Below, piece after piece: positions 4,992 through 35,320 of a DNA stretch of 64,000 nt. Both the position numbers and the translations under genes were made by a program. This DNA comes from Candidatus Dojkabacteria bacterium (GTDB taxonomy: Bacteria > Patescibacteriota > Dojkabacteria > J137): contig JBGSZB010000011.1 of NCBI GenBank assembly GCA_041750555.1, forward strand, positions 588 to 64,587. The letters are read 5' to 3'. How positions within the stretch are numbered: position 1 is the stretch's first letter; every line of letters begins with the position of its first letter. The notes beneath the pieces are model-generated. The model was not told where the DNA came from. It saw only the letters and a program-made list of their open reading frames with translations, and ran no database searches.

Positions 4992-6353
4992 CTATTTCTT
5001 TAACTTTTTTATAGACTTAGAAATTAATTTAATCTCCCCTTTATCAATTATCATATCCTCATTTAATTTTTCAGGACCAGCTCTTAAAATATCACCTACA
5101 TTTTTATATCCATTAGCTTTTAAATCACTCTTAATATTTTTAGGTAAATCTAACTTATCTACACTTAACTCACCTACTTCATTTAAAAACTTTTCGTCTT
5201 CAACTTCTGCCTCATCCTTAACTTTCTTAGCATTATCCTTTTCTTTAGAAGCCTTATCATTAGATTTACTTTCATTTTCAGTTTCATTATCGTTTTCATT
5301 TTCTTTAACTACTTCATTTTTTTCTTCACCTTCATCTATTAGATCTTCAACATTTTCTATAACATCTTTTTTTGATTCAACAGGTATTTTTACTTTATCT
5401 TCTTCACTATATATCTCATCATAACTCTTATCTAATACATCAGTTATTTTTTCCTTTTTATCTGATCTTCTTAAAAATCCAAAGAATCTTCTTTTTTCAG
5501 GTTCTTTAATATCTTCAACAATCTCACTAACCTGGGTTTCTTCTGGTAAATTATCTTCTAAATCATTTATTTTAAATTTAAAACTCTTTTTCTCATTATT
5601 TTTCTTACTCTTTTTCTTTGTATCCTTTGGAGATTCTTCGTTATCTAAAACTAACTTTTCAAAGTTCTTAGATACCATTTCGTACTGTCCTTTATTATCA
5701 TCTCTAATAATCTTACCTCCCTCCATTTGAATAACTCTTTTATTTAGAGAGTTAACAATATCGGTTCCATGAGTAGACATAATTACTGTAGTACCCCAAT
5801 TATTAATTTTAGTTAAAACTTGAACAATATCCCAAGCACTTGCAGGATCTAAGTTACCTGTTGGTTCATCAGCTATTAATATCTTTGGATTATTTGAAAT
5901 AGCTCTAGCAATTGCTACTCTTTGTTGTTCTCCACCTGATAACTGTCTTGGAAACGAATTTAATCTATTAGAAAGACCTACAATATCTAAAACATAGGGA
6001 ACAGTTTCTTTAATCTCTTTAGTTGTTTTACCTGCAGCTTCCATTGCAAATGCTACATTTTCAAAAGCAGTTTTATCTGGAATTAATTTAAAATCTTGAA
6101 ATATTACACCTATCTCTCTTCTTAATTTATATACCTTTCTTCTATTAATTTTTGTTATATCAACCTCATCAAAAAATATCCTTCCGCTTGATGGAAGTTC
6201 ATCTCTAATTAACATTTTAATTACTGTAGTTTTACCACTTCCAGATGGACCTATCAAAAAAAGAAATTCTCCTTCATTAATTGTAAAGTTTACATTATCT
6301 ACTGCAGTTATATTTCCATCATACACTTTAGAAACATTATTAAACTCAACCAT
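4992..6353 (-). CDS. ftsE: Cell-division ABC ATPase FtsE, fused to a ~220-aa Lys/Glu/Asp-rich linker and a C-terminal helix-hairpin-helix (RpoA alpha-CTD-like) domain
   Basis: Residues 1-225 carry Walker [10 protein letters not shown], the ABC signature [14 protein letters not shown] and Walker [13 protein letters not shown]. The C-terminus ...[32 protein letters not shown]...[14 protein letters not shown] aligns by eye with the RpoA alpha-CTD HhH fold. Confidence 0.8.
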
Positions 6354-8379
6354 GCTTTTTTCTATAATTCTTAAAAATTTTTGTCTTAAAAGTATACTTG
6401 CTTTTTAAATTCTTTAACAGTCTAAAATTTATCCTTTTAGTTACACTCTTTTTATATTTAATTAACAGCGTTATTAAAAGAATTAATATAACTAGTATAA
6501 GTATTACTTTATACAAATCTTTATTTACATAAATATTTAAATTAATTAACCCATTACTTTCAAAGTTTTCAGATTTAATTACGTAATTTAAATTAGTATT
6601 GTTTGTATCTATTAAAAATATTCCTGGATTAATTTCTCCATTAACCTCTACCTCTGATAGTGGTGGAATTATTAAATTAGTGTCATTAATCACTTCCTCC
6701 ACATTGTAACTGTTATTTGATATTAAAATATCTTTTGGATAAAAAAAGAAATTATTTGGGTTATATATTCTTAAACCTAAATAGTTGGATACTCCAGATT
6801 GTAGAGATATATTAGAATCTATACTTAAACTCAATGTTTTTAAGTTATTTGAGCTTTCATTAACTTCACTAACTTCGTTTATGTCACTTAAAGTATTTAC
6901 ATCATTTTTTCTAAATTTAGAAATTATTGGAGAAGATATATCACTTCTTAATCCTAAAAACCCTGAGTTACTATCAAGGGACCACATTCCATAAGTTATT
7001 CTATCTCTAGAATCCTTCATAAAGTATGTTAAAAGATTAACCTCTTCTAAGAGTGGATCTAATATATATTCAGTGTTATCTAACTTAAATTCACACCAAA
7101 CATGAGGAGTAGATGTTTCATTTAATAAATATCCATAAACTATTCTAAAAGGAATATTAAATTCTTTAGCAAAGCTTCCAATTATGTAACAGTATTCAAA
7201 AGAATTAAATTTATCACTTTCACTTAACTTCTCCCATATTAAATTAACACTTTCATTACTTATAACTTCATTTAAATTAGGGCTTAATTTGTTCTTTAAG
7301 TACTCATTAACAGCTCTTAACTTCTCTAATGGGGTATTTACTACCTCTACAAACTCCAAAGCCTCTAAATAGAAGTTTTTAGATTTATCAATATTAAATT
7401 CATTGTTAAATACATTAAAACTCTCTTTTTCTATTCTGCTATTAAAATATTTAACATTATTTGTATTATTTAAATTACTCTCACTCTCTAGAATATTTGC
7501 ACCATTAGAATATATATTCATTTCAAAATTAAATTCAGTATCTGATTTAGGTATTAATACATAGTTATTTAAATACTTATCATTAAAAGCATAACTTAGT
7601 GTTGGAGAATTAAGATATTCAAATGTAAAATCTCTTTCAAATGGCAAATTAAAAAGTAAGTATGAATTTAAATTTATAATACCAATCTCATTTTCTAATA
7701 TATCCTCTTCTGTATTTTCACTAATATTTAAATCATTATTAACCCCAATCTTAAAATTTGAATAAACATTATCTATCTCTCCCCATAATATTTTTAATGC
7801 ACCATTACTAGATCCGCTTATACTATTCCCAATTGAATTGTAATCATTGGAATATACTGTTAAGTTATTACCAAAACTCACGGGATAAGTAATATTAAAT
7901 TTAAAGCTTTGTAGAGAAAAATCATTTTCATAGTATGGGAAGTAAAATTGTTTTAAAGAAAAAAACTCTTTAACTAAAGATTTAGTATCAAATTCAATAT
8001 TAAGTATTGGATCTAAATTAAATATTGATAATTTATCTTTTAAACTAATTAATAAACTAGTGGTATTACCCTCAACCTCTTTATTAAAGTTAAACTCTCC
8101 AAAAGTATTATCTACCTTTAAGTTTTCAATATCTTTAAAGGGGAATACTACTCTAACCGATTCAAATACCTTAGTATCTGTTACATTAATATAGCTGATA
8201 TTTAGTTTAAAGTTAGAATTTAAATTCTCATCAATTGTAATATCTATACTACTATCACTGTTTGCTAGTGCCTTAACTTTATTTATTTTAAAGTTTAATA
8301 ACAGTGTTATTGAAATTAATAACAGTATAGTAATTAGTAATATTTTAAATTTATTAAGCTTTATAGTTTTAAACCCCAT
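6346..8379 (-). CDS. Transglutaminase-like (Cys-His-Asp) domain surface protein with N-terminal signal/anchor and C-terminal TM plus basic tail
   Basis: 677 aa. The core EYCYIIGSFAKEFNIPFRIVYGY...TPHVWCEFKLDNTEYILDP matches the transglutaminase-like cysteine protease Cys/His/Asp arrangement. There is a hydrophobic N-terminus and a C-terminal TM followed by a K/R-rich tail. Confidence 0.5.
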   Translation of the reverse strand: MGFKTIKLNKFKILLITILLLISITLLLNFKINKVKALANSDSSIDITIDENLNSNFKLNISYINVTDTKVFESVRVVFPFKDIENLKVDNTFGEFNFNKEVEGNTTSLLISLKDKLSIFNLDPILNIEFDTKSLVKEFFSLKQFYFPYYENDFSLQSFKFNITYPVSFGNNLTVYSNDYNSIGNSISGSSNGALKILWGEIDNVYSNFKIGVNNDLNISENTEEDILENEIGIINLNSYLLFNLPFERDFTFEYLNSPTLSYAFNDKYLNNYVLIPKSDTEFNFEMNIYSNGANILESESNLNNTNNVKYFNSRIEKESFNVFNNEFNIDKSKNFYLEALEFVEVVNTPLEKLRAVNEYLKNKLSPNLNEVISNESVNLIWEKLSESDKFNSFEYCYIIGSFAKEFNIPFRIVYGYLLNETSTPHVWCEFKLDNTEYILDPLLEEVNLLTYFMKDSRDRITYGMWSLDSNSGFLGLRSDISSPIISKFRKNDVNTLSDINEVSEVNESSNNLKTLSLSIDSNISLQSGVSNYLGLRIYNPNNFFFYPKDILISNNSYNVEEVINDTNLIIPPLSEVEVNGEINPGIFLIDTNNTNLNYVIKSENFESNGLINLNIYVNKDLYKVILILVILILLITLLIKYKKSVTKRINFRLLKNLKSKYTFKTKIFKNYRKKHG

Positions 8380-8434: not shown

Positions 8435-9298
8435 ATGCATAGTTTTAAAAAAAGTTTTGGACAAAATTTTCTAAAAGGCCATAAGTTTCAATCTTTAATG
8501 GTTGAATATCTAGATCTTAAAGAAGATGATTTAGTTATAGAGATTGGTCCTGGAGATGGCTCTCTAACTCTTCATCTATTAGAAACTAATGCATTAGTTA
8601 ACTCTATTGAAATTGATTACTCCCTTCTTCCAACATTACTTAGAAAGTTTGATCGGAATAATAACTTTAATTTAATTAATGAAGATATATTAAAATTAGA
8701 CTTTAAAGAACTTTTAAATAATACTTTTAATAAAGATAGGTTTAGTGAGTTATTAAAGGATAATAGAGGAGTTAAGATATGTGGTTCTCTTCCATACAAT
8801 ATTTCTAAAAGGATTATCTCTAGCTTATTAGATTTAAATTTATCTTTTCATATTGATAATAAATATGGAATTAAAATTGAATCTATGTGTTTTATTGTTC
8901 AAGATGAAGTTGCTAAAGAATATGTATCAAGACCCCCACAAGCTGCAAAACTCTCTGTAATTTCTTCCCTTTATTCTGATATTAAAAAGGGATTAAGTAT
9001 TCCTAAAGACTATTTTTATCCAAAACCTAAGGTTGATGGTGGGATATTAATATTTAAACCTTTAAATAATTCTGATGATTTTAATGTATTAAACATTAAA
9101 GAGATTATTAAATTAGTAAATATTGGATATATATCTCCTAGAAAAACGTTATACAACAACTTAAAATCTAGTAATAAATGGGATAGTGATAATATTTTAA
9201 AAAGTATTGAAGCTATTGGATTTATAAATACTACTAGGGCATCTGAGTTATCCCGTGATAATTGGATTAAGCTCTATTCTCTTTTAATTAATTCTTAA
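8435..9298 (+). CDS. rsmA: 16S rRNA (adenine1518/1519-N6)-dimethyltransferase RsmA/KsgA
   Basis: Contains FGQNFL...VIEIGPGDGSLT, the KsgA SAM-binding motifs. Confidence 0.85.
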   Translation: MHSFKKSFGQNFLKGHKFQSLMVEYLDLKEDDLVIEIGPGDGSLTLHLLETNALVNSIEIDYSLLPTLLRKFDRNNNFNLINEDILKLDFKELLNNTFNKDRFSELLKDNRGVKICGSLPYNISKRIISSLLDLNLSFHIDNKYGIKIESMCFIVQDEVAKEYVSRPPQAAKLSVISSLYSDIKKGLSIPKDYFYPKPKVDGGILIFKPLNNSDDFNVLNIKEIIKLVNIGYISPRKTLYNNLKSSNKWDSDNILKSIEAIGFINTTRASELSRDNWIKLYSLLINS

Positions 9299-11050
9299 AC
9301 CACCAAGTTTTAATATTGGGTTTAAATATCTTTTTAATATCTTTAACTCTTCAACTCTAAACAGCAAAGATAGTAAGTAGTAACTAAGAAGTGCTGTAAT
9401 TACACTAACAATAGTTAATATTAAAAGATTAAGCGTTGTAGATCCAAATACACCTCCATCTCCTGAAACTGGTAATGCATTGGCAATGCTATTCCATGTT
9501 TTATATAAAAAGTATAGTATTACAAACATAATAGCTCCACTGTAAAACTTAGGTAGGGTTGATTTAATTAGTTTTTTAAAGTTAAATTTATACTTTGTAT
9601 AGTGATAAATAATTAATAGTATAAAAAACTCTAGAGAATAAGTAATGCTCATAGCTAATGCTATTCCACCAATTGATGCTGAACTTGTTGGGTTAGGATT
9701 TCTATTTAGTAAATGTTCTAAACTTAACTGTATATCACTTATTGCTAAAGTATTGTTGTAACTAAATAGATTAGTAAATGCTATTGATAAAATTATTGTA
9801 AAGACTAATGATACAAGAGAAACAAGGAATGGATACATTGTGTCTTTTGCAGCGTAAAACACTCTGTAAATAAACCATCTACCACAAATAAATACATGAC
9901 CTAATGTAAACCATAATAATATCCATGCAGTTAAACTTGTATCATCAAAACCAAATCTTGTATTTGGAATTATACCAAATACTAATCTAACTATTGGCAC
10001 TCTTAAAACTATTAAAATAATTATAAAAGGTAGGGATAAAAACAATATCTCATTTAGTGTCTTAATTATTACATCTTCAGCCCTTTTGTTATCATTTTCT
10101 TCATATAACTCAGCTAATATTGTATAAGATGGAACTGAAAAGGTATAGCCAAATAGCGTTGGGATAACTAATGATAGGGAATTAGCATAAGTTAGAGCTG
10201 CAATATTTCCTGAAATTCCATAAGCTAGAAATTTATTAAATGTAAAAGCAATATGTTCACTAGCTATAGCAAATATTCTTGGTAATCCAGTTCTTAATAT
10301 CTCTAGAACATATTTATTTAATATTGCAATTACCGGTACATATCCAAGTTTTAATTTAATAACTAGGGGTATTTGTACAAATAGATGTAAGAATGATCCT
10401 ACAAATACTCCGACAACTATTGCCCATGGACTGTAATTCATTAATGGAACAAGTATAAATAACATAACTACTCTTCCAATGTTATAAAACAATGGTGCTA
10501 ATTGAGGAACTAAATATCTGTTATGAACATTTAAACCACTTGATATAAATACACTAAATCCTAATACTACTTGAGGAATTAATAGCACTCTCATCATTGA
10601 GATAATTATCTCGTAATCTGCAATATTAATTACTGTATCTGGTTCAAATAGATTTAAAAGAAATGGTAGAGTTGTATCTGCAGTAACCGCCAAAATTATT
10701 GCAACTATTGAAAATATTAATATAGATAAATTAATTATTGAACTATATACTTTTCTAAATTCAATATTACCCTCTCTCTTTTTAACTGTTATAAGTGTTG
10801 GTATAACAATTGAACCTAGAGTACCAATTAAAAATACATTTGTAAGTAATTCTGGTATAGAACTCGCAACAAGAAATTGATTCCAACCTAATTCTTTAGT
10901 ACCAAAATATGAAGCTGCTATTAAATTAAAAAATAATCCAGAAAGTTTAGTTAAAAGAGCAGGTAACATTAAAAGTAGTGCTGTTTCTAATATCTCTGTT
11001 TGTTCTCTACTAAGTAATCTTCCAACTTTTTTTATTCCTCTATTAAGCAT
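9284..11050 (-). CDS. murJ: Lipid II flippase MurJ (MviN family)
   Basis: 588 aa with about 14 TM segments. The N-terminal region ...LSREQTEILETALLLMLPALLTKLSGLFFNLIAASYFG is typical of MurJ. Confidence 0.7.
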   Translation of the reverse strand: MLNRGIKKVGRLLSREQTEILETALLLMLPALLTKLSGLFFNLIAASYFGTKELGWNQFLVASSIPELLTNVFLIGTLGSIVIPTLITVKKREGNIEFRKVYSSIINLSILIFSIVAIILAVTADTTLPFLLNLFEPDTVINIADYEIIISMMRVLLIPQVVLGFSVFISSGLNVHNRYLVPQLAPLFYNIGRVVMLFILVPLMNYSPWAIVVGVFVGSFLHLFVQIPLVIKLKLGYVPVIAILNKYVLEILRTGLPRIFAIASEHIAFTFNKFLAYGISGNIAALTYANSLSLVIPTLFGYTFSVPSYTILAELYEENDNKRAEDVIIKTLNEILFLSLPFIIILIVLRVPIVRLVFGIIPNTRFGFDDTSLTAWILLWFTLGHVFICGRWFIYRVFYAAKDTMYPFLVSLVSLVFTIILSIAFTNLFSYNNTLAISDIQLSLEHLLNRNPNPTSSASIGGIALAMSITYSLEFFILLIIYHYTKYKFNFKKLIKSTLPKFYSGAIMFVILYFLYKTWNSIANALPVSGDGGVFGSTTLNLLILTIVSVITALLSYYLLSLLFRVEELKILKRYLNPILKLGGLRIN

Positions 11051-11063
11051 ATTTATATTTTAA

Positions 11064-11639
11064 CTAGAAACTCCAAGTAAGTAACCCTATTAATAACCCA
11101 ACTATAGTTCCCATAAACAATTGTAAAAGAGTGTGTTGATGTAGTGTTCTTCTTGACCAATAAACTAGGGGTATTAATAACATTAAAAAAATTAAATATA
11201 TTGATACTTTATCAATTAAGTAAATTATACAAAATGATAAAACACTACTATGTACACTAATCTTATCTAAATATTTATTTATTAAATACATTGAACTTCC
11301 AAGTATAAATAATACAAGGGAGTTATTAAACCAATAAACTAAACCTAAATGTAGGAATAAAATAGTAGTTAAAAATGACGTAAATATCCCAAATAAATAT
11401 ACTAAATCTCTTCTAACTCTTGTTAAGTTATGAAATTTAAAAAAACTTTTTTTATCACGAGATATAAAGTATGTATAAATTACAAATGGTAATAAAACTA
11501 CAAGAATTAGTAGAAATAGTGCAGGACCAAAAAGAGTATCACTTCTAGTTAAATTACCAAATATTAAAGTGAGTGTTAAAACCAAGAATGGGTTTAACAG
11601 CACACTAATAATACTTGCTATAAAGATTTTAAGTTTCAT
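11064..11639 (-). CDS. Polytopic membrane protein, possibly a divergent PAP2-family phosphatase
   Basis: 191 aa with five to six TM helices. SRRTLHQH resembles PAP2 motif 3 (SRx5H) and SVHSS resembles motif 2, but the catalytic Asp is not evident, so this is a weak call. Confidence 0.3.
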   Translation of the reverse strand: MKLKIFIASIISVLLNPFLVLTLTLIFGNLTRSDTLFGPALFLLILVVLLPFVIYTYFISRDKKSFFKFHNLTRVRRDLVYLFGIFTSFLTTILFLHLGLVYWFNNSLVLFILGSSMYLINKYLDKISVHSSVLSFCIIYLIDKVSIYLIFLMLLIPLVYWSRRTLHQHTLLQLFMGTIVGLLIGLLTWSF

Positions 11640-11685
11640 TTAATGATTTAGTCTTAAACCATTTAAACAGATAGAGAGAATATTA

Positions 11686-13962
11686 TCAATATCTTCTATC
11701 ATTACCCCTATTACCACCTCTACTATCTCTATTAAATCCTCTATCTCTGTCATTAAATCTTGGTTTGTTATAGTCATTAGTTGAGATAGGTGCATTAGAT
11801 ATCTTTGATGTTAAAGCTTCATCTTGTTCAACACCTTTAATAGTAAAGTTAATTCTTCCATCTTCCATTTTTAATACCTTTACTCTAATTTCATCTCCTA
11901 GATTAAATACTTTCTCAAGATCATAGTTACCCATTTTTTCAAAGATTTCTGAGTTGTGTAACAATCCTGAAATATTTGGTGTTACATCAACAAATACTCC
12001 ATAAGGCATTATTTTATCAACTCTTCCAATGTATTCTTCTCCAACTTCTGCTTCTCCAACCATTCCATCAATTAATCCTACTACAAATTCTAATTGTGAT
12101 TTATTTAGAGCAGTTACCATAACTCTACCTGTATCATCAATTTTTACATCTGCAGGACTTGAGGCATATTTATGAGACTTTTCAACTATCTCTTTAATGT
12201 TTTTACCACCTGGTCCTATAAGCATTCCAATGTTTTCTGTATCTATTTGTAATTTTTTAACAACAGGTGCAGTATCAGAAACTTCTTTTCTAGGAGTATC
12301 TATTGCTTTACTCATAACTTCTAATACTTCACTTCTTCCAGTCTTTGATAATCTAAAAGCTTCTTTCAAAACATCTATCTTTACACCTCTTAATTTGTTT
12401 TCGTATTGAATAGCAGTTATTCCATTCTTAGTTCCACAAACTTTAAAGTCCATATCACCATAAAAGTCTTCTATTCCTTCAATATCTAAAATTAATTTGT
12501 AATTATCTTCGTTATTATCTTCTGTAATTAATCCAACACCTATTCCACCAACTGCTTCTTTCATTGGAACTCCTGCAGCCATTAATGCCATACTAGCGGC
12601 ACTTGTTGCAGCCATTGAAGTTGATCCATTTGATGTTGTAATCTCTGATACCACTCTAATTGTATATGGAAACTCTTCAAGACTAGGAAGCATATGTTTT
12701 AATGCATTTTCTCCAATTGCTCCATGTCCAACCTCTCTTCTTCCAGGTTTATAGTTGTATCTTCCTGCTTCACCAGATGCGAATGGAGGCATATTGTAGT
12801 GATGAAAGAAGTTCTTTGTTCGTTCTCCCAACATATCATCTAAAGTTTGTTCTTTACCAATTGAACCTAATGTTACTATTGATAATGATTGTGTTAAACC
12901 TCTTTCAAACAATGCTGATCCATGAACTATAGGTAATAGATCTATCTCTGCATTTAATTCTCTAATTTGATTTAAATCTCTTTTAGTTACTCTTTTACCA
13001 TCTTTTAAGATTCCTTCTCTTAAAACTTTTTTAGCTACATATTCAACAGCCATATCTATATCAAATTCTGAAACTACACTTTCTTCTTTATTTAGTTCAG
13101 GATTTAATTTCTCCCATAGGGCTTTTTTTATAACTTTAAGATTCTCTTGTCTATTAGTATCCTTATCTTTTTCTACGTATAGTGCTTTTTTAATATCTTC
13201 TTTAGTTTCACTCTTAATTCTCTCTAATATTTCAACACTTACTGGTAGATCTGCTTCTTTTTCAATTACGTTATTTAATTTTGCCCCAACATGTTTTACA
13301 AAGTCTAATTGAATAGCATTCATTTCTCTAATAGATTTATCAGCTTCATCTAATATTTTATCCATATCATCTTCTACAACTTCCTTCCCCCATCCTTCTA
13401 AGTTTAGTAATCTACCATCTAAACCAGATATTGCAAATTCACAAAGATAGTTATGACTATCTGCAACTTTCGGATTAATTACTACTTTTCCATCTTTATC
13501 TAAACTTGCAATTACTCCTGAACTTGGTCCATAGAATGGTAGTCCTGAAAGTAATAATGAAAGGCTAGCTCCCATTACTGATAATATTTCAGGATTATTT
13601 ACTTGATCGTAAGTTAATACAGTTATCATGACCATTACAGGCTTTCTAAAACTTTTTGGAAAAAGGGATCTAATACTATGATCTACTTGTCTAGCTTTGA
13701 TTATTGCTTCTTCTGAAGGATATCCTTCTCTTTTCTCTATTCTTCCGCCAGAAATTGCACCTCTAGCATACATTTTTTCAATGTATTCTACAGATAATGG
13801 GAAGAAATCTTGTTGTGTTTCTACATTATCTATTGATGTTGTTGCTAATACTGTTGTATTACCTAGTTGTAGCATTACAGAACCAGATGCTAAATTAGCT
13901 AATTTACCTGTGGAGATTTTTAATTCAGTTTCCCCTAACTTATATGTTTTTACATACTCCAT
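11686..13962 (-). CDS. pnp: Polyribonucleotide nucleotidyltransferase (PNPase) with an Arg/Gly-rich C-terminal tail
   Basis: 758 aa with two RNase PH domains, a KH region (IGMLIGPGGKNIKEI) and an S1 domain. The C-terminus is ...RFNDRDRGFNRDSRGGNRGNDRRY. Confidence 0.9.
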   Translation of the reverse strand: MEYVKTYKLGETELKISTGKLANLASGSVMLQLGNTTVLATTSIDNVETQQDFFPLSVEYIEKMYARGAISGGRIEKREGYPSEEAIIKARQVDHSIRSLFPKSFRKPVMVMITVLTYDQVNNPEILSVMGASLSLLLSGLPFYGPSSGVIASLDKDGKVVINPKVADSHNYLCEFAISGLDGRLLNLEGWGKEVVEDDMDKILDEADKSIREMNAIQLDFVKHVGAKLNNVIEKEADLPVSVEILERIKSETKEDIKKALYVEKDKDTNRQENLKVIKKALWEKLNPELNKEESVVSEFDIDMAVEYVAKKVLREGILKDGKRVTKRDLNQIRELNAEIDLLPIVHGSALFERGLTQSLSIVTLGSIGKEQTLDDMLGERTKNFFHHYNMPPFASGEAGRYNYKPGRREVGHGAIGENALKHMLPSLEEFPYTIRVVSEITTSNGSTSMAATSAASMALMAAGVPMKEAVGGIGVGLITEDNNEDNYKLILDIEGIEDFYGDMDFKVCGTKNGITAIQYENKLRGVKIDVLKEAFRLSKTGRSEVLEVMSKAIDTPRKEVSDTAPVVKKLQIDTENIGMLIGPGGKNIKEIVEKSHKYASSPADVKIDDTGRVMVTALNKSQLEFVVGLIDGMVGEAEVGEEYIGRVDKIMPYGVFVDVTPNISGLLHNSEIFEKMGNYDLEKVFNLGDEIRVKVLKMEDGRINFTIKGVEQDEALTSKISNAPISTNDYNKPRFNDRDRGFNRDSRGGNRGNDRRY

Positions 13963-14104
13963 ATATATGTGTATAAAAAATTAAAATTTATTAAGGATTA
14001 ATTTGAGAGAAGCAAGAATTTAACATTACTGTAATATCAAATTTTTGCATCACTCTAAAACTTTTCCTCAATTAAGTGATTATATTATATTAATATCTTT
14101 TAAT

Positions 14105-15646
14105 CTACTTTTTCTTGGTTAATCTATTCTCTACCTTGTTTTCAAAGTTTTTTAAGGATCTATGTTTTTTATCTCTTTTCTTTTCTTTTCTTTTAAGATC
14201 TCTATCAATAGAGACATATTCTCCAAATAGTTTTAATGATTTTTGTGTTAAATCATATTTATAGAAGAGTATTCCAAGTATTATCGCTATAAAGCCTAAT
14301 GCTATTCTGTTATCTCTATCGTTATCAAATAATGCAGTTTCTGGTAATTCTCCAGGACATACTCCACCTAGTGCATCTTCACATTCACCTGCAGTTACTG
14401 TTGATCCTGCTGGACAACTATCATCTGTTGTTACAAATGATTCACATGTATTACCATCACTTAAACTGGTTGTACATCTATAGCATGTTAAGTTTTGTGA
14501 TGTTGTTACAGGACATGCTCCACCAACACTTTCTTCACAAGCTGATTGAGTTGTACTTCCTGCTGGACATACACTTCCATTTACACTAAATGATTCACAT
14601 TGATCATTATCACTTAATGTATCAGTACATTTATAACAGGTTGTAGTTACACTTTGTACAGGACACGCCCCACCAACAGCTTGAGAACATACTGAATTAG
14701 TTGTATATCCACTAGGACAACTACTTCCATTAATAGTAATACTTTCACAAGTGTTTACATCATCAACTCTATCAGTACATTTATAACAGGTTACTGTATC
14801 TGTAGGTGTTGTTGGAGGGTTACTTGTATCTTGACAATTATTATTATTAGCAGGGTCTCCAATATGACTACAATAGTTTGTACCAGCTCTAGCATCTGCA
14901 TCACTTGGATAGAAATCAACTTGGGCACATCCATTAGGTAAAACACAACCACTACCACTTGAGAAAGTTACACTTGCTCCTTCATCTGCTAGGGTACATT
15001 GATCATCTCCATTTGAATCAAAACTACATTTATATATTGCACAGTAATTACAAGTGGTAGTTGCACCTCCACAAGTTACTCCATTTGCAACATTTGCTCC
15101 ACTTCCTGCGCTACATACAGGATTAGTTGGGCATGTACAACCATCAACATCACTACATGTTGATGTACAACTACTTAATGATGTTCTTGAACCGTCACCT
15201 GTTGTTCCTGATGGACATGATGTATCATATTTACAACCCTTTGAAGTATTATCTCCCGTAGCTGTATTACATCTATACTCCATTCTTTGACCAGTTGGAC
15301 ACCCTTCTCCGCAAGCACCTGAAAAGTCAACACCTTGAGGGCACTTAGTTGTCTGAGTTTCAGTAGGACATTCAGAAGTATTGTACTCGGCACAATTAAC
15401 CACACTACCTCCAGTTACAGCAACACACTTACATACATAGCCTGTTCTATAGCTACCCCCATTTATTGGATGACTTGTATATTGACACTTTCTTCCATAT
15501 GATGCTGGATCACAAGTCTCTGCACTACTATCATCTGGAGCTTGATCTTGAGTTAGTCTTACAGCTATAAATACAGCTACACCACTAAGTATTAATAATA
15601 CTATTACTAATATAATTGAAATTAATCTTTTTCTATTAGGGTTCAT
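14105..15646 (-). CDS. Cysteine-rich cell-surface protein with three ~45-aa Cys repeats and a C-terminal LPETA sorting signal (putative sortase substrate)
   Basis: 513 aa. N-terminal signal/anchor, then a Cys/Thr/Gly/Ser-rich ectodomain with three tandem repeats TCYKCTD..D.C(E)S...NGS.CP.G.TT.S.C....GGACPV. The C-terminus is LPETA, about 10 residues, a hydrophobic helix and a long K/R-rich tail. Confidence 0.6.
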   Translation of the reverse strand: MNPNRKRLISIILVIVLLILSGVAVFIAVRLTQDQAPDDSSAETCDPASYGRKCQYTSHPINGGSYRTGYVCKCVAVTGGSVVNCAEYNTSECPTETQTTKCPQGVDFSGACGEGCPTGQRMEYRCNTATGDNTSKGCKYDTSCPSGTTGDGSRTSLSSCTSTCSDVDGCTCPTNPVCSAGSGANVANGVTCGGATTTCNYCAIYKCSFDSNGDDQCTLADEGASVTFSSGSGCVLPNGCAQVDFYPSDADARAGTNYCSHIGDPANNNNCQDTSNPPTTPTDTVTCYKCTDRVDDVNTCESITINGSSCPSGYTTNSVCSQAVGGACPVQSVTTTCYKCTDTLSDNDQCESFSVNGSVCPAGSTTQSACEESVGGACPVTTSQNLTCYRCTTSLSDGNTCESFVTTDDSCPAGSTVTAGECEDALGGVCPGELPETALFDNDRDNRIALGFIAIILGILFYKYDLTQKSLKLFGEYVSIDRDLKRKEKKRDKKHRSLKNFENKVENRLTKKK

Positions 15647-17001
15647 TTCCTTTTAAATATATCTACTCTGAAGTATAAAGATAATCCTAAGAATATCAAG
15701 AGTATCCCTACAATAATTGCATCTACTCTATCATTAATAATTGCAGTACCAGGTAGTGAGCCACAATCTGCAGGACATGTAATATTAGATTCACTACTAC
15801 CACATATTCCATCTCCACAAACAACAGATGTACCACTTCCAACAACAGTATTTTGACCACAAGCATCTAATAACAAATTAACATTAGTTACTCTACTTCC
15901 AGTACTAGTAGTTAAAAACACAGTATCAATATCTCCACATTGAGATAGTGTATATCCTCCTTGAGGAGCTAATGGTAAACATCTTTGATTAGTAGTATAT
16001 GCTTGTGATAAACAAGACTCTGCACTTACATTATTTGTATTAGGTAGTAAGAAACCACATGTAGAACCAGTTTGACATAATCCAACTTCATCACTACAAG
16101 GAGCTCCACAAGCATTTAAACTTCCACAAGCACAATTAGCTCCTGGAACTGTTTTACCACTAGGACATGCTGCATTTTCACACATACCATTCCTACAGGT
16201 AACTTCAATCCCTGCTGTAGCTGCTGGTTTACAATCTGCAACTGTAGTACATTTACCACCACATACAGATCTAGAATCTACTGTTGTACCACCTCCAGTA
16301 CTACCTTGTATAGCACAACATAAATCTCCACTACTTGAACAACTTCCACTTCCAGTAACTCTACCTACTGATCCACAATTGTTAACGGTTACCCCATTAT
16401 ATGTAGACCCAGGTGTAAAACATGCCCCACTACATGAACCACCTCCACTCGTTGATGTTCCACCACAAGTTACTCCATTATTAATATTTCCACTTGTATT
16501 ACAACCACTAGGACATGTACATCCATCACTATCATTACATGTTGCTGTACAACTAGTTAATGTTGTTCTACCTGATGTACCACCTCCTGTATTAGTAGGA
16601 ACACAACAGACCTTCACCGAACCTTCCTCACAATCTGTACCAGTTAAAGAAGTTTCATTTGTATTACATGCTGATTTACACGATCCACTAAATCCACCGC
16701 AATTCGTAAGAGTACCCTGACACGAGCAAATATAATTTGAGCCTGAAAGACCACCCTTGCAAATTCCTAAGGCACCACTATCTGTAGTACATGTACCACT
16801 TCCAGGAATTTTTCCACCACAACCATTAAATGAAAGTGTAGTTGAACATATTTCAAAACCGGCTCCAGGCTCTTCATCTGCACTACTATCCGTTGGAGAT
16901 TGTTGTAAAGTAACCTGATATGCTACATAAATAGCTATACCACCTAAGATAAGGGTTGCAAATACTAAAATACCTACAATTACATTTCTTCTATTCTTCA
17001 T
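15643..17001 (-). CDS. Cysteine/glycine/threonine-rich cell-surface protein, paralog of the downstream gene, C-terminal LPGTA sorting signal
   Basis: 452 aa. Its N-terminal anchor is homologous to that of the neighbouring protein (…VTLQQSPTDSSADE vs …LTQDQAPDDSSAE). It is extremely Cys/Gly/Thr/Ser rich. C-terminus is ...SLPGTAIINDRVDAIIVGILLIFLGLSLYFRVDIFKRK. Overlaps the downstream paralog by 4 bp. Confidence 0.6.
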   Translation of the reverse strand: MKNRRNVIVGILVFATLILGGIAIYVAYQVTLQQSPTDSSADEEPGAGFEICSTTLSFNGCGGKIPGSGTCTTDSGALGICKGGLSGSNYICSCQGTLTNCGGFSGSCKSACNTNETSLTGTDCEEGSVKVCCVPTNTGGGTSGRTTLTSCTATCNDSDGCTCPSGCNTSGNINNGVTCGGTSTSGGGSCSGACFTPGSTYNGVTVNNCGSVGRVTGSGSCSSSGDLCCAIQGSTGGGTTVDSRSVCGGKCTTVADCKPAATAGIEVTCRNGMCENAACPSGKTVPGANCACGSLNACGAPCSDEVGLCQTGSTCGFLLPNTNNVSAESCLSQAYTTNQRCLPLAPQGGYTLSQCGDIDTVFLTTSTGSRVTNVNLLLDACGQNTVVGSGTSVVCGDGICGSSESNITCPADCGSLPGTAIINDRVDAIIVGILLIFLGLSLYFRVDIFKRK

Positions 17002-17036
17002 AAGTAAATATATTATTATCTATTTAAAAAGAAATA

Positions 17037-18515
17037 TCAATTTCTTTTATCTAAATATTCTTTTGATAACTTTAATAGCTCTTCCTTTTTATTTAACATT
17101 GGTTCATCAGTTACCTTATCTAGTAAATACTTTAAAATATCTGAAATAACTGGGCCTGGAGTTAAATTAAAATTACTAATTAAATCATTACCTGAAATAT
17201 CTAAATCAGTAACCTTTATAGCCATGTCACTGGCTCTAACTTCAGAAATTCTTTGAGATAGAGCATCTAACTCTTTAGGATTAAATTCACTTTTAGGATT
17301 AGATGCAGCATCAGCAATTCTTAACTTCATTAAATCATCAATAGCATCTTCACCACCAACATTTTGAATTAAACGTCTAATAGCACTATCACTCCATCCT
17401 AATTTATTTCTTTCATCATTAAATTTTTCATACTCAATATTATTGTTATTCAATACCCTCCAATCACTTGATGGATAATAGAACATATGCCATCTAACTA
17501 ACCTTACTGTATTTTCAATCTCGATATTAGAGAACTTTAAACGTTTCATAATATTACGAGTCATTTCAGCACCCATAACATCATGACCATAAAAATGTAC
17601 TCCCTTAGAGTCAATAGTCATAGTTTTAGGTTTAGCAATATCATGAAAGAGAGCCGCTAATTTAATATCATCCTCAGCACAATCTACAGTTTTAATACTA
17701 TGCTCAAAAACATCATCAACATGGAAATTGGGTTGAGTAATACCAACTCCATCTAATAGTTCAGGAATAAATATTTGAAGTATCCCACTATCTTTAAGTA
17801 ATCTTAAACCAAGAGAGGGCTGTGGAGATTTAAGTAATATTTTCATTAATTCTTCTCTAAATCTCTCAATAGAAACTAACTTTGTAACATGTAGAGTTTC
17901 TTTAATAGCATCAAAAGTTGCTTTTTCAATATTAAAATCTAATTGAGAAGCTAATCTACAAGCTCTTACACTTCTTAAACCATCTTCACTAAATCTCTCT
18001 AATGGATCTCTAACAGCTCTAATAACCTTGTTATTTAAATCTCCTAAACCATTAAAATGATCAATAACAATTTCTTCAACTGCAACATTATCTTCATCAA
18101 ATCTTTGTAAATCTAGTGCTAATGCATTTATTGTAAAGTCACGTCTTTTTAAATCATCTTCAATATCTCTACTAAATTCAACTTTTGATGGCCACCTCCC
18201 TGAAATATAGTCAGCTTCAGATCTAAATGTTGTAACTTGTACTTCAAATCTTTCTCCTAAATCATCACTTGCTACTACTGTTACAGTTCCAAATTTAGCA
18301 CCTGTTGGTATTGATTTAACAAATATATCCATAATTTCTTCTGGATATGCATTAGTTGCAATATCAAAATCACTAGGTAACTTACCTAAGAATATATCTC
18401 TAATACTTCCACCAACTAAGTATGCACTAAAGCCTCCCTTTTGTAATTGTTCAGCAACATTAATTACATATTTAGGGATATATTTTAAAAATTCTCCTTT
18501 TTCTAATTTAATCAT
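17037..18515 (-). CDS. cca: CCA-adding tRNA nucleotidyltransferase with HD domain
   Basis: Pol-beta-type NT motif GGSIRDIFLGKLPSDFDIAT, and an HD motif (FHDIAKP) in the C-terminal half. 492 aa. Confidence 0.8.
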   Translation of the reverse strand: MIKLEKGEFLKYIPKYVINVAEQLQKGGFSAYLVGGSIRDIFLGKLPSDFDIATNAYPEEIMDIFVKSIPTGAKFGTVTVVASDDLGERFEVQVTTFRSEADYISGRWPSKVEFSRDIEDDLKRRDFTINALALDLQRFDEDNVAVEEIVIDHFNGLGDLNNKVIRAVRDPLERFSEDGLRSVRACRLASQLDFNIEKATFDAIKETLHVTKLVSIERFREELMKILLKSPQPSLGLRLLKDSGILQIFIPELLDGVGITQPNFHVDDVFEHSIKTVDCAEDDIKLAALFHDIAKPKTMTIDSKGVHFYGHDVMGAEMTRNIMKRLKFSNIEIENTVRLVRWHMFYYPSSDWRVLNNNNIEYEKFNDERNKLGWSDSAIRRLIQNVGGEDAIDDLMKLRIADAASNPKSEFNPKELDALSQRISEVRASDMAIKVTDLDISGNDLISNFNLTPGPVISDILKYLLDKVTDEPMLNKKEELLKLSKEYLDKRN

Positions 18516-19535: not shown

Positions 19536-19618
19536 TACTGCGGGAGGGAGTCGAACCCTCACGACCTTAAGGCCAACGGATTTTAAGTCCGTCGTGTATA
19601 CCATTCCACCACCGCAGC
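19536..19618 (-). tRNA. tRNA-Leu (anticodon TAA), class II with long variable arm; CCA not encoded
   Basis: Reverse-complement reads GCTGCGGTGGTGGAATGGTATACACGACGGACTTAAAATCCGTTGGCCTTAAGGTCGTGAGGGTTCGACTCCCTCCCGCAGTA. The 7-bp acceptor stem has a G1-U72 pair, the anticodon loop is CTTAAAA and the discriminator is A73. Confidence 0.85.
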
Positions 19619-20024: not shown

Positions 20025-21083
20025 TTATTTCTCTCTAAACTTATACATTGGTAATGGCTTTTCACCCACCTCAATTCTATAACTATGAAACTTAAGTGTT
20101 GGATGATTAATTAAAATATCGTAACTACCATTTTTTAATTCACCACTGTATTCAAACTTACCATTATCTAATACTTTAAACTTAACTTCTGATTTATCAC
20201 TCTCACTAATTAAAAGAACTTCACAATTACCTACAGGATTATTACTCTTATCTACAACTATACCTTTAATAACTTTAGGAGATTTAACTATGGGAACACC
20301 TAATTTAACATTTACATCACTTTGTGATTGTTGAACCATGTCTTTTCCTTGATTACCTTCATTTACCTTAACATCATTACTCTCTTTAGATGCTTTAATC
20401 TCATGATACAAATCATTCATCTTCCCCATTAATTCTTCTCTAACACCTGGATCTGTAGTTTTTGAAAATTCAAACTTTAATTTCTCAAATTCAGATTTGT
20501 AATCTCTAGTTTCACTTAAATTACTAACTTCATTACTAGGTTGTGTTAATGGATTAGTAGGTAAACTAACTTCATTAAATATACTTTCAAATTTATCATC
20601 AAAGTTTTTAGCCCTTAATTTATCTCCTTCTAAAAAGTCTTCTGCTAAAGATTCCTCATTATCTAATCCTCCTAAATCATTTTCTGCAGTAGTATCCATA
20701 ATACTATCTAGTGCATATTTCTTTTTATTTTTTAAACTAGACACTTTTTCATACTTAGGTACTTTTTTAATATCTTCACTAGTTTTTAAAATATCTGGAG
20801 TTGCCTTTTCTTTAACCCATACATATCTTGGTGCTACTATTAAAGCTTTAATAAAGCCTCCAAACCAAGTACCGAAGTTTGGAATAATTGCCATTAAAAG
20901 ACCAACTGCTATCGCTATAAATATTAGAGGTACTTTAACTATTAAAGGTATTAGAGGAATAAAATATACACCTACACCAACTAAACAACCTATTAATATC
21001 TTACCGAATTGTTTAAGTGTAAAAGCACCAAACAATTTAAATTCTACATCTATAATGTTTTGAGGTACTGGATGTGGTTCCAT
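20025..21083 (-). CDS. Membrane protein with N-terminal TM hairpin and C-terminal carboxypeptidase-regulatory-like/Ig-like beta domain
   Basis: 352 aa. The N-terminus MEPHPVPQNIIDVEFKLFGAFTLKQF is followed by 2-3 TM helices and the C-terminus is ...GIVVDKSNNPVGNCEVLLIS...GSYDILINHPTLKFHSYRIEV. It resembles PrgI-family T4SS membrane proteins, but the match is weak. Confidence 0.35.
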   Translation of the reverse strand: MEPHPVPQNIIDVEFKLFGAFTLKQFGKILIGCLVGVGVYFIPLIPLIVKVPLIFIAIAVGLLMAIIPNFGTWFGGFIKALIVAPRYVWVKEKATPDILKTSEDIKKVPKYEKVSSLKNKKKYALDSIMDTTAENDLGGLDNEESLAEDFLEGDKLRAKNFDDKFESIFNEVSLPTNPLTQPSNEVSNLSETRDYKSEFEKLKFEFSKTTDPGVREELMGKMNDLYHEIKASKESNDVKVNEGNQGKDMVQQSQSDVNVKLGVPIVKSPKVIKGIVVDKSNNPVGNCEVLLISESDKSEVKFKVLDNGKFEYSGELKNGSYDILINHPTLKFHSYRIEVGEKPLPMYKFREK

Positions 21084-22945: not shown

Positions 22946-23698
22946 TTATTCAAAAAGAATAAATAAATACATAACAGCTATACCAAGAATAAAACTTAAT
23001 ATCCTTAAGATATATTTAAAACTATTACTCTCCCTATGTATTTCTGGAACTAAATTTACTAATGCAATATATATAAATTGACCAGCTGCGAATGGTATTA
23101 AAAATGTTGATACACCATCAACTAATTCGTTAAGTAAAAATGTTATTACTACACCTATCATTGCCGTTAAACCAACTAAGAGATTTGCAATTAATACCTT
23201 TTTCTTATCCCACCCGCTATATATTAAAATACCTGCATCTGCTAATTCTTGAGGTATTTCATGCAATACTACAGCAATAGTTGTAGCTACTCCAACTGCA
23301 GGACTTACAATAAAAGATGTAGCAATTGCTATTCCATCTAAAATATTATGTACACTATCTCCTACTAAATTAATTTTAGCTAATTTCTTATTATGTTTAT
23401 GAGTAGTATGATCATCTTCTAATTCATGATGATGTTGATGAATAGTTGATTCAACAATTAACATAAATATTATTCCTAAGAATAAAGAAATCATAATATC
23501 TATACTAAATCCAAATTCTTCTATAGATTCCCCTAATAAATGAAAGAATGAATCTCCAAGTAATGTACCTGCTGCAAATGAAACTAATAGAGATATTATT
23601 AAAGATTTAGAACTAATCTTTCTAAAAAATAACAGAACTCCAATTAATGATATAAGACTAACTATTAGTGAAGCTAATAAACTATTTAGTAATTCCAT
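22946..23698 (-). CDS. zupT: ZIP-family zinc transporter ZupT
   Basis: 250 aa with about eight TM helices, a His-rich loop (HQHHHELEDDHTTHKH) and the ZIP signature HEIPQELADAGIL. Confidence 0.8.
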   Translation of the reverse strand: MELLNSLLASLIVSLISLIGVLLFFRKISSKSLIISLLVSFAAGTLLGDSFFHLLGESIEEFGFSIDIMISLFLGIIFMLIVESTIHQHHHELEDDHTTHKHNKKLAKINLVGDSVHNILDGIAIATSFIVSPAVGVATTIAVVLHEIPQELADAGILIYSGWDKKKVLIANLLVGLTAMIGVVITFLLNELVDGVSTFLIPFAAGQFIYIALVNLVPEIHRESNSFKYILRILSFILGIAVMYLFILFE

Positions 23699-23714
23699 AA
23701 ATGACTATTAAAAT

Positions 23715-24218
23715 TTAAAATATTTGCTTAATTAAATGAATTGTTTGAAATTCATCTTTTGATTCGTAGACTATTTCAAATCCCATTGAAACCCAGTATT
23801 CTAATGAACCAGGAATATTCCTTTGGGTATGTAAGTATATATAACTGTATCCTTTTCTTTTTGCGAATGACTCAATTTTTTTAAACATCTTTCTTCCTAA
23901 ACCTTTTCGCCTTAAAGATTTTAGAATATAATGTCTCCACAACGAAATAGTACTATCTCCGTTAAACACTTCTGGATCTAAAAATTCATAGTTTCTATCA
24001 TATGGTCTAGCTGCAATTGTACCAACTATAGTATTTTTATCTTTTAATACTAAAAATAGTTTTTTTTCACCTATGTAGAAGTTATTAACATCATCGATAT
24101 CTTTATGCCAGACAGGATTATATTTATATCCAAAGTCAGCTTCTAAAACACCGAAAATAAAATTTCTTACTTGTGGAATATCAAATTCTTCTAATTTTAC
24201 AATTTTTAGCTTATTCAT
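23715..24218 (-). CDS. GNAT-family N-acetyltransferase
   Basis: 167 aa with the acetyl-CoA-binding motif LRRKGLGRKMFKKIESFAKRKGYSYIYL. Overlaps the upstream NAS-like gene by 8 bp. Confidence 0.6.
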   Translation of the reverse strand: MNKLKIVKLEEFDIPQVRNFIFGVLEADFGYKYNPVWHKDIDDVNNFYIGEKKLFLVLKDKNTIVGTIAARPYDRNYEFLDPEVFNGDSTISLWRHYILKSLRRKGLGRKMFKKIESFAKRKGYSYIYLHTQRNIPGSLEYWVSMGFEIVYESKDEFQTIHLIKQIF

Positions 24219-24972
24219 TTCTTAAGATAACTGCTGAATTAACTACATCATTAAAAGGATCAACTCTAAGTATTGGCTTAAAGATTTTGAATATTGAACT
24301 ACTTAAAGGCCTATATAATATTCTCCTATTACCCCAGCTAGATCTAGCAACTATATGTGTTCCCGACTTAGAGGTAGCTTTAATTCTTAAGAAAATCTTT
24401 CTTTTTGTTGAAGAATTTAAGCCTGCCAATGCTGCAACAAATACTGTATTGTAATCTTTATAGTTAAATCTTTCACCACTTGATTTAATAATTTTAATAC
24501 TACTATCTAAATCTAGCTGTTTAATTAACTTTTCGGATAGGTTAACAGCATCCTCGTCCATGTCTATAATTGTTGATTTGATATTATGATAAAGAGATAG
24601 AACAATTGCAGTCATGGGGAGTGGACCACCTCCGATAAATACAACTTCATGATTATCATGTTTAGAGCACCCCATTAAAGTAAATATTTCTAATTTTGTT
24701 AAATCAATATAATTCTTTATATAAGGGAATTTTTTAAACTCTTCTATTGAGTTATTAGAGGAAATTATTCTAAGTGACCAATATTTTTCAAGCTCATATT
24801 CTGCCTTTGCAGATAGAATCTGCAATCTTGATATTTCATACCTTGTCAGCTTAGCATCTAAAGAATACTTAACCGATTTTTCTACAAGTTGAGTAAATAA
24901 TTCGTTTACTTCAGTGCTTGGAGTAAAATCCTTCAATTCCTCAATCTTTTTATATAATTCTCTTATTGTCAT
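24211..24972 (-). CDS. Nicotianamine synthase-like (NAS/CntL-family) aminobutyryl transferase
   Basis: 253 aa. Motifs VVFIGGGPLPMTAIVLS, FVAALAGLN, RSSWGNRRILYRP and NDVVNSAVI correspond to the plant and archaeal NAS signatures VAFVGSGPLPLTSIVLA, FLAALVGM, RSAHGxRxFLYP and DDVINSVV. Confidence 0.7.
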   Translation of the reverse strand: MTIRELYKKIEELKDFTPSTEVNELFTQLVEKSVKYSLDAKLTRYEISRLQILSAKAEYELEKYWSLRIISSNNSIEEFKKFPYIKNYIDLTKLEIFTLMGCSKHDNHEVVFIGGGPLPMTAIVLSLYHNIKSTIIDMDEDAVNLSEKLIKQLDLDSSIKIIKSSGERFNYKDYNTVFVAALAGLNSSTKRKIFLRIKATSKSGTHIVARSSWGNRRILYRPLSSSIFKIFKPILRVDPFNDVVNSAVILRNE

Positions 24973-27928: not shown

Positions 27929-28005
27929 TGGCGGGATGGAAGGGGATCGAACCCTCAACCTTTCGCGTGACAGGCGAATGCTCTAACCAGTTGAGCTACC
28001 ACCCC
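27929..28005 (-). tRNA. tRNA-Asp (anticodon GTC), CCA encoded
   Basis: Reverse-complement reads GGGGTGGTAGCTCAACTGGTTAGAGCATTCGCCTGTCACGCGAAAGGTTGAGGGTTCGATCCCCTTCCATCCCGCCA. The anticodon loop is CTGTCAC, the discriminator is G73, and a 3' CCA follows. Confidence 0.9.
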
Positions 28006-33757: not shown

Positions 33758-33847
33758 TACCTTCATCCAATACAAAACGTTAGAAGATTATAGTAATCTT
33801 TACCGATTTTGAGATATTAAAGAGTAATTAATTAATCTTAAGAATAA

Positions 33848-33874: not shown

Positions 33875-33897
33875 TAAGTCTAATTAAAATAATGAAC

Positions 33898-34356: not shown

Positions 34357-34394
34357 TTTTATTAAATCATAATTTATAAAAGATTAAAAGTTTT

Positions 34395-35310: not shown

Positions 35311-35320
35311 TTAATTTCTT

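Follow-up and report, generated by a model that had tools for sequence, protein, structure and literature searches.

Two adjacent cysteine-rich genes with LPxTA cassettes encode predicted surface proteins of a Patescibacteria family

How might a bacterium of the Patescibacteria (candidate phyla radiation, CPR) display proteins with dozens of cysteines on its surface, and what would hold them there? The question is raised by two neighbouring genes, here A and B, on a 64,000-nt stretch of a Candidatus Dojkabacteria genome (contig JBGSZB010000011.1; hereafter the window). An initial annotation, made from the DNA letters alone, had described them as overlapping genes for proteins of 452 and 513 aa, with homologous N-termini, ectodomains dominated by Cys, Gly, Thr and Ser, and C-terminal sortase signals. 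We examined the window and 28 related DNA stretches (loci) fetched for comparison. A and B are very probably real, secreted, C-terminally anchored Cys-rich surface proteins. For the chain as a whole we hold with moderate confidence that they form an exported, disulfide-rigid surface pair, anchored at LPxTA via a class-D-like sortase signal and carrying variable exposed tips.

The gene pair and its coding context

Open reading frames of exactly the lengths and positions first described were found, co-directional and overlapping by 4 nt, where the ATG of B meets the stop codon of A:

15643-17001, minus strand: gene A, Cys-rich surface protein with a short-tail anchor (open reading frame, 452 aa)
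14105-15646, minus strand: gene B, Cys-rich surface protein with a long-tail anchor (open reading frame, 513 aa)
17012-17040, minus strand: promoter-like site TTGATA-17-AATAAT just upstream of A (weak, consensus match only)

Each protein contains 44 cysteines (9.7% of A, 8.6% of B). In the remaining 53 window genes, Cys makes up 0.50% on average and at most 3.3%, so this enrichment is far beyond chance. The composition claimed for the ectodomains was borne out (G 15.7, T 11.9, S 11.3 and C 9.7% in A; T 11.7, S 10.3, G 9.2 and C 8.6% in B), as was the homology of the N-termini, which align over ~197 aa at 34% identity (BLASTP, E 2e-6). GC content was 36-37% in A and B and 24-31% in the window. 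GC at third codon positions (GC3) was 0.10-0.115 in the pair compared to 0.146 +/- 0.032 in other window genes, and Cys was encoded 40-41 times by TGT and 3-4 times by TGC in each gene. Both patterns are native, so the higher GC content reflects amino acid composition, not foreign origin, and horizontal transfer of A and B was rejected on codon usage.

The pair sits in a co-directional string of peptide deformylase, CCA-adding enzyme, A, B, PNPase, a 191-aa membrane protein and MurJ. A and B are probably co-transcribed and translationally coupled; promoter-like sites in the region are fewer than expected from shuffling. A protein identical to A is present in NCBI (P0008), and orthologues of A (P0009) and B (P0001) share 66-76% and 73-77% identity with them, respectively.

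Export signals and the C-terminal cassette

Both proteins begin with a putative export signal and end in a cassette resembling a sorting signal:

16867-17001, minus strand: A residues 1-45, N-terminal export signal with a basic n-region, a ~23-aa hydrophobic helix and the conserved QQSPTDSSA
15518-15646, minus strand: B residues 1-43, N-terminal export signal with TQDQAPDDSSA
15646-15756, minus strand: A residues 416-452, cassette LPGTA-IINDRVDA-transmembrane (TM) helix-RVDIFKRK, short-tail class
14108-14347, minus strand: B residues 434-513, cassette LPETA-LFDNDRDNR-TM helix with a 51-aa K/E-rich cytoplasmic tail, long-tail class

At the N-terminus, the helix is followed by a polar segment (TLQQSPTDSSA in A, LTQDQAPDDSSA in B) in which a small-x-Ala motif lies ~12 residues past the hydrophobic stretch; the motif recurs in relatives. 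Judged by this motif, the QQSPTDSSA segment is likely a signal-peptidase site at which the protein would be cleaved. Residues 2-33 of A formed a helix in the full-length AlphaFold2 (AF2) model. At the other end, LPGTA (A416) and LPETA (B434) are followed by an acidic linker of 8-9 residues and, directly after it, by a hydrophobic helix (IIVGILLIFLGLSLYF in A, IALGFIAIILGILFY in B). The tail of A, RVDIFKRK, has 8 aa and is basic (net +3), whereas that of B has 51 aa, is K/E-rich and net positive, carries a conserved motif and terminates in RSLKNFENKVENRLTKKK. The initial annotation had given both proteins the full order of LP(E/G)TA, linker, helix and basic tail, and had called it classical. 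All of this stood for A, whose C-terminus reads as a textbook tripartite sorting signal. For B, the motif and helix stood; the short basic tail did not, and a long-tail C-terminus with a conserved cytoplasmic motif does not read as classical.

The cassette gave the firmest result of the analysis. Among 157 retrieved proteins there were 61 non-redundant cassette carriers, and the consensus [LI]PxT[AGS]-[IL]x[DS]DxxD-TM was kept in every full-length homologue. The refuting condition named beforehand, LPxTA motifs that vary among orthologues, thus did not arise. Position 1 is L in 44 carriers and I in 15, position 2 is P in 61/61, position 4 is T in 58/61, and position 5 is A in 39, G in 10, S in 8 and N in 4; the pentapeptide is followed by [IL]-[FIV]-[DS]-D-x-x-D, the TM helix and a tail beginning with K or R. 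LPDTA and LPNTA are the commonest variants, canonical LPDTG occurs in the A-like orthologue of locus L021, and one of 92 relatives matched the LPXTG_anchor model TIGR01167 (E 1.7e-4). Tails fall into two classes, short (~8 aa, as in A) and long (median 36, up to 62 aa, as in B). Three small relatives (P0130, P0138 and P0150) comprise only an N-terminal signal, a Pro/Thr-rich stretch and the cassette; a Pro/Thr-rich stretch preceding the motif is the typical wall-spanning region of Gram-positive sortase substrates. In locus L023 (10001-11203), the stalk-only P0130 (signal, PTKVPPTKV repeats, LPSTA anchor, no Cys) is followed immediately by a DsbD_TM/CcdA-type membrane protein.

We postulate that the N-terminal signal (basic n-region, ~23-aa helix, QxQAPxxSxA) would direct A and B to Sec export, after which the 44 cysteines of each would be oxidised outside the membrane, perhaps by membrane-anchored thioredoxin-like oxidoreductases. 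The cassette ([LI]PxT[AGS], acidic [IL]x[DS]DxxD, TM helix, charged tail), itself observed and conserved, would then retain the protein in the membrane until a class-D-like sortase recognising LPXTA cut after Thr and joined it to peptidoglycan. LPXTA is the class D sortase consensus, and LPNTA and LPDTA are also class D motifs (PMC8225981, PMC3208642). MurJ, whose gene stands in one string with A and B, shows the presence of a lipid II pathway. It is plausible that the genome carrying A and B also encodes a sortase; the family is present in more than half of CPR genomes and near-universal in Microgenomates (PMC6744442). No sortase was found in the window by a TLxTC-type regular expression or by phmmer with S. 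aureus SrtA over six-frame open reading frames, or by Pfam over ~40 open reading frames, as the initial annotation had already observed. Pattern and phmmer matches on the window and loci were all spurious, and the Pfam lists for the neighbourhoods of 10 family members contained no sortase. Since none was located in the window or the 28 loci, cell-wall linkage is here something that we only infer.

This lack of a sortase in any locus examined is among several points that weigh against wall attachment and suit a different account, in which A and B would be permanent type I membrane proteins: the LPxTA-acidic segment would be an uncleaved juxtamembrane element, the TM helix the anchor, and the long tail the contact with a cytoplasmic partner for localisation, signalling or assembly. 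Tails of at least 25 aa occur in 41 of the 61 cassette proteins, B included, 25 long tails carry [FY]E.[KR][FVIL] near the C-terminus, and the tail of B is moderately conserved between orthologues. As a segment discarded by sortase would not be expected to be conserved, this conservation counts against sortase release. Neither A nor B hit PF00746 Gram_pos_anchor or TIGR01167 at E <= 1. Two further observations sit awkwardly with the postulated chain: for a signal peptide that is cleaved, a hydrophobic segment of ~23 aa is long, and sortases are patchy outside Microgenomates (PMC6744442), the genomes here being labelled Saccharibacteria or Patescibacteria. However, the pentapeptide fits sortase specificity position by position, with its invariant P, near-invariant T and small fifth residue, and LPDTG/LPxTG variants are among those found; the 8-aa basic tail of A and many relatives is that of a textbook sorting signal; and the stalk-only relatives put their Pro/Thr-rich stretch directly before the motif. 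We therefore regard permanent membrane residence as rather unlikely. The conserved cytoplasmic tail is nonetheless the main unexplained feature of the family, and the main support for membrane retention, at least of the long-tail proteins.

Cysteine-rich modules, folds and oxidation

Between signal and cassette, the ectodomains resolve into variable segments and Cys-rich modules:

16552-16866, minus strand: A residues 46-150, hypervariable segment, the wall-distal end if mature (L012 orthologue comparison)
16447-16566, minus strand: A residues 146-185, module in common with B (RTTLTSCTATCNDSDGCTCPSGC...NNGVTCGG; BLASTP of A against B)
15835-16275, minus strand: A residues 243-389, core disulfide-rich domain with 12 conserved Cys (alignment, AF2)
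15182-15517, minus strand: B residues 44-155, variable segment, the wall-distal end if mature (L012 orthologue comparison)
14795-15181, minus strand: B residues 156-284, Cys-rich middle part, within which lies the module common to A and B (RTSLSSCTSTCSDVDGCTCP...NGVTCGG)
14645-14794, minus strand: B repeat 1, residues 285-334, CYKCT module, 6 Cys
14492-14644, minus strand: B repeat 2, residues 335-385, CYKCT module, 6 Cys
14342-14491, minus strand: B repeat 3, residues 386-435, CYRCT module, 6 Cys, running directly into LPETA

The module common to both proteins reads RT(T/S)L(T/S)SCT(A/S)TC(N/S)D(S/V)DGCTCP...NGVTCGG, and its copy in A (residues 146-185) is conserved in P0003, P0009 and P0010. 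In B, the initial annotation had counted three repeats of ~45 aa with eight or more cysteines each; the number was right, and each repeat proved to be 50 aa long with six cysteines, spaced C-x2-C-x9-C-x9-C-x9/10-C-x7-C. The repeats are 44-56% identical in pairs (36-50% without the shared Cys). TRF detected no DNA-level tandem repeat among them and they are 50-65% identical in nucleotides, so the duplications are old.

The most widespread module of the family is the core domain of ~147 aa (A243-389), with 92 copies among the retrieved proteins. Its alignment (A3, 45 sequences) contains 15 invariant Cys columns and yielded an AF2 model with a predicted local distance difference test (pLDDT) of 89.1 and a predicted template modelling score (pTM) of 0.75, which describes a small beta-rich fold with two short helices. 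Full-length A, modelled from 9 sequences, was unusable (pLDDT 41.8). The core domain matched nothing in the PDB by sequence or fold, and is thus, as modelled, a confidently predicted fold unrecognised in the PDB. It is distinct from the CYxCT repeat (hhalign probability 1%). A and B gave no hit in Pfam or NCBIfam at E <= 1, and no PDB sequence matched A, B, the core-domain profile or the repeat profile. The check for a known family, directed at the repeat unit, accordingly returned no match in Pfam, NCBIfam or the PDB for the repeat or for the rest of the ectodomains.

These searches also bear on a resemblance drawn by the initial annotation to EGF, granulin or keratin-associated modules, for which neither profile nor fold gave a match. 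That the ectodomains are eukaryote-like modules of this kind, acquired by horizontal transfer, would draw on impressions of composition and Cys spacing and on the top fold hits of the core domain, which were eukaryotic IGFBP N-domains and non-significant. The absence of Pfam, NCBIfam and PDB sequence matches, the native GC3 and Cys codons, and the titles of the loci, all of which name Patescibacteria or an uncultured bacterium, effectively refute it, and we give it next to no credence.

If the cysteines are paired, each protein would contain 22 disulfides, and the window encodes three candidate oxidants:

40705-41247, plus strand: thioredoxin-fold protein with N-terminal TM helix and WCPTC (Pfam Thioredoxin; TM helix and CxxC from sequence)
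41255-41698, plus strand: thioredoxin-fold protein with N-terminal TM helix and WCGTC (Pfam Thioredoxin; TM helix and CxxC from sequence)
58474-58929, plus strand: thioredoxin-fold protein with N-terminal TM helix and WCGSC (third such gene in the window)

From their architecture, these are likely extracytoplasmic thiol-disulfide oxidoreductases of the MdbA-like, membrane-bound type that is enriched in CPR genomes (PMC6744442), and they may serve the putative disulfides of A and B. In Actinomyces and Corynebacterium, MdbA/VKOR oxidative folding is coupled to sortase-mediated surface assembly (cited in PMC6744442). The parallel would lie in exported sortase substrates that require disulfides and in the three membrane-anchored CxxC enzymes, whose link to A and B we infer. 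Unlike that system, the window showed no VKOR or DsbB, and the Cys load of A and B is far above that of pilins.

Family, genomic slot and wider setting

Relatives were few in word-indexed searches of 5.8 billion proteins, which returned only 7 and 6 hits. A search of 1.84 billion cluster representatives with the family-profile hidden Markov model returned 271 at E <= 1e-3, 103 at <= 1e-10 and 33 at <= 1e-30, and a metagenome scan with alignment A1 yielded 4 loci only. The family is restricted to Patescibacteria: the genomes are labelled Saccharibacteria, Patescibacteria or uncultured bacterium, and three are closed chromosomes of 1.11-1.19 Mb. It is also modular, combining the 12-Cys core domain, the CYxCT repeat (from one to at least six or seven copies) and the module shared by A and B; P0003 has A-type and B-type modules within one protein. 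Some relatives join the core domain with Myxococcus-type Cys repeats, PA14, GLEYA, Laminin_G_3, DUF11 or dockerin, and most of these partners suggest an adhesin-like context. Further core-domain relatives (P0012-P0018 and ~40 others) have no anchor. Some anchorless C-termini share a conserved ~45-aa segment (…EFYDEYTIPxGxTxFTxxAQIHHxxLGWF), and others end in a dockerin-like DxNxDGxIxxxD or in …QCRPCVGxxCxxWEAW. Given such varied C-termini, the core domain is displayed or tethered in several ways.

Across loci of 27-39% GC the order def - CCA-adding enzyme - [gene(s)] - PNPase - PAP2-like membrane protein - MurJ is conserved, and the slot in its middle is filled differently. A single gene occupies it in P0003, P0011 and L013; an A-like short-tail gene followed by a B-like long-tail gene in the window, L012 and L021; and a five-gene expansion in L028, including cassette proteins of 413, 1072 and 869 aa. 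In L028 the five genes lie before PNPase (8760-17319), and the 1072- and 869-aa proteins have six or seven CYxCT repeats. Tandem cassette genes in L028, L009/L010/L017 (~8700-12300) and L007 (1-2879) usually have a short- or medium-tail gene before one or two long-tail genes.

How the pair evolves was assessed in a single pairwise comparison of the window with the orthologues in L012, an 88.8-kb contig. The ratio of nonsynonymous to synonymous divergence (dN/dS) was 0.36 for A and 0.25 for B, compared to 0.09-0.15 for housekeeping neighbours, and by this measure both genes are under constraint. Nonsynonymous differences per site (pN) were low in the core domain (0.06), the B repeats (0.08) and the A anchor (0.047). 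The N-terminal segments that follow the signals are hypervariable: A46-150 had pN 0.51, synonymous differences per site (pS) 0.59, dN/dS ~0.73 and indels, and B44-155 had pN 0.35, dN/dS ~0.46 and indels. As the anchor is C-terminal, these two segments would be the outermost parts. The proposed check for positive selection did not detect it, as no region exceeded a dN/dS of 1 in this one comparison; what it indicates is relaxed or diversifying tips. Arranged in this way, the C-terminus would be proximal to the wall, the fast-evolving post-signal segment would form the exposed tip, and the conserved modules (the 147-aa 12-Cys core of A, the three 50-aa CYxCT repeats of B) would serve as a rigid stalk or binding platform.

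The likely role of the pair is to mediate attachment or recognition on the cell surface of a bacterium that depends on a host, and the episymbiont setting suggested by the initial annotation is plausible because the source is a Patescibacteria/CPR bacterium. Alternatively, A and B might be mainly structural and make up a coat cross-linked by disulfides, or an S-layer-like envelope layer, that gives the cell stiffness or protection; this need not exclude the reading we favour. Their extreme Cys density and even Cys count (44 each) would suit a coat, as would a housekeeping-like syntenic site by envelope genes (MurJ, PAP2-like protein, FtsEX, transglutaminase-like protein) and weak hits of the Kustd1514 S-layer model in three relatives (E 1e-4). 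However, neither A nor B hit an S-layer or SLH model, lectin or adhesin domains occur in relatives, and distal segments that evolve much faster, in a slot whose gene number varies by lineage, are more typical of interaction surfaces; we consider a primarily structural role unlikely. More speculatively, the two tail classes could be joined in one Patescibacteria-specific, two-class sorting signal. Short-tail proteins such as A would be released to the wall, while long-tail proteins such as B, with an amphipathic juxtamembrane segment and a terminal K/R-x-F-E-x-K-F/V, would contact a partner in the cytoplasm, which could serve localised secretion, retention or signalling via the leftover peptide. 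The paired genes in one slot would then build a two-component disulfide-rigid structure whose hypervariable tips set which host cell is bound, with the core domain as a new fold. We offer this combination tentatively, and doubt that all of its parts would hold together.

The nearest known substrates are those of Bacillus class D sortases, BasH/BasI of B. anthracis (LPNTA) and YfkN (LPDTA) and YhcR (LPDTS) of B. subtilis (PMC8225981, PMC3208642). A and B share with them an LPxTA/S pentapeptide, a hydrophobic helix, a charged tail and an N-terminal export signal. Unlike them, the family has the acidic linker [IL]x[DS]DxxD, a long conserved tail in two thirds of its members, and unrelated, extremely Cys-rich ectodomains in a Patescibacteria host, with the cognate sortase not found in the window or the 28 loci. 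Within the CPR, 'Ca. Peribacter riflensis' (Peregrinibacteria) encodes clustered, exported Cys-rich (~7%) proteins that vary between strains and for which attachment was proposed, with a sortase in the genome (PMC4736985). A and B are likewise CPR proteins, clustered, signal-bearing, very Cys-rich and predicted to be extracellular, but the 'Ca. Peribacter riflensis' proteins are much larger, ~1,655 aa, and are said to bear a weak similarity to the Cys-rich repeats of Myxococcus. Those Myxococcus-type Cys-rich acidic repeats (TIGR02232, NF033662, PF13948 DUF4215) are also short, disulfide-rich and extracellular, and accompany the core domain in 3-5 of 92 relatives. A and B had no hit to these three models at E <= 1, and the core domain and CYxCT repeat are modules separate from them, although the segment VCGDGICGSSESNITCPADC immediately before LPGTA in A looks like a degenerate copy. 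The variant-specific surface proteins of Giardia, with ~10% Cys, a variable membrane-distal N-terminal part and a conserved C-terminal TM helix with a short cytoplasmic motif, offer an analogy only: A and B share the Cys content, the variable distal N-terminus and the conserved TM anchor with a cytoplasmic motif, but the Giardia proteins are eukaryotic, unrelated in sequence and without LPxT, and there is no evidence of switching among A/B-like genes.

Some of the surroundings of A and B concern the envelope. The 191-aa multi-pass membrane protein between PNPase and MurJ (11064-11639, minus strand) has no Pfam hit. It was considered as a hidden sorting enzyme and rejected, since the stretches …KISVHSS… and SRRTLHQH, read by eye, fit the PAP2/BcrC-like pattern KxxxxxxxH..SRxxxxxH; on that pattern it may be an undecaprenyl-pyrophosphate phosphatase. 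A 677-aa membrane-anchored transglutaminase-core protein (6346-8379, minus strand) lies in the conserved envelope gene string and is the fastest-diverging neighbour (55% identity to L012). Its homologue in L003 (17708-19501) has a C-terminal ILPNTS and TM helix like a sorting signal, which the window copy lacks. A PrgI-family protein with a CarboxypepD_reg-like C-terminal domain (20025-21083, minus strand), near a ~1,900-aa protein in L003 and L004, may be part of a type IV secretion or conjugation-like apparatus. A type IV pilus cluster (33182-40547) includes a prepilin peptidase (33182-33757, plus strand), at least 4 N_methyl pilin-like genes (33898-37225, minus strand), larger genes at 35321-40021 and a response-regulator receiver gene (40008-40547).

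Elsewhere, a nicotianamine-synthase-like gene (24211-24972, minus strand; PF03059, E 1e-47) adjoins a GNAT acetyltransferase (23715-24218) and a ZIP metal transporter (22946-23698). Together these (22946-24972, minus strand) may be a module for a metallophore or for metal uptake, which would be unusual for a reduced genome of the Patescibacteria; at the matching place, the L012 relative carries FUR and ZIP. The window also holds a bacterial class A RNase P RNA (59636-60022, minus strand, 112 bits) and tRNAs at 19536-19618 (minus), 27932-28005 (minus) and 28689-28770 (plus), and no rRNA was found within it. Up to ~40.5 kb, almost every gene lies on the minus strand and the GC skew has strongly negative values. 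Beyond that point gene orientation is mixed and skew is near zero, apart from one positive 2-kb bin at 46-48 kb. The change may mark a replication-related switch or simply coding-strand bias.

Part of what A and B represent was already known: LPXTA/LPXTG signals, Cys-rich exported proteins of CPR bacteria, and the CPR enrichment of sortases and MdbA-like enzymes. That A and B are a real, conserved tandem pair of Cys-rich exported paralogues was borne out. The view that such proteins are unusual in bacteria has to be tempered, since CPR Cys-rich proteins, oxidoreductase and sortases have been published (PMC4736985, PMC6744442). Nothing is overturned. The new elements are modest in scale: a family without annotation, confined to Patescibacteria, one of whose domains was confidently modelled and has an unrecognised fold; a cassette that is extended, includes an acidic linker and comes with tails of two classes; and a conserved, expandable slot whose products have hypervariable tips.

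Patescibacteria attach to other microbes and, to our knowledge, few of their surface molecules are understood besides type IV pili. The cassette is easily recognised and could help to draw up an inventory of the surface proteins that Patescibacteria genomes encode for display. As candidates for host recognition or for a role in the envelope, proteins of the A/B type are of interest for cultivated systems of the Saccharibacteria type, and the presence of a long, conserved tail in the cytoplasm behind a sortase-like signal bears on how sorting works in Patescibacteria.

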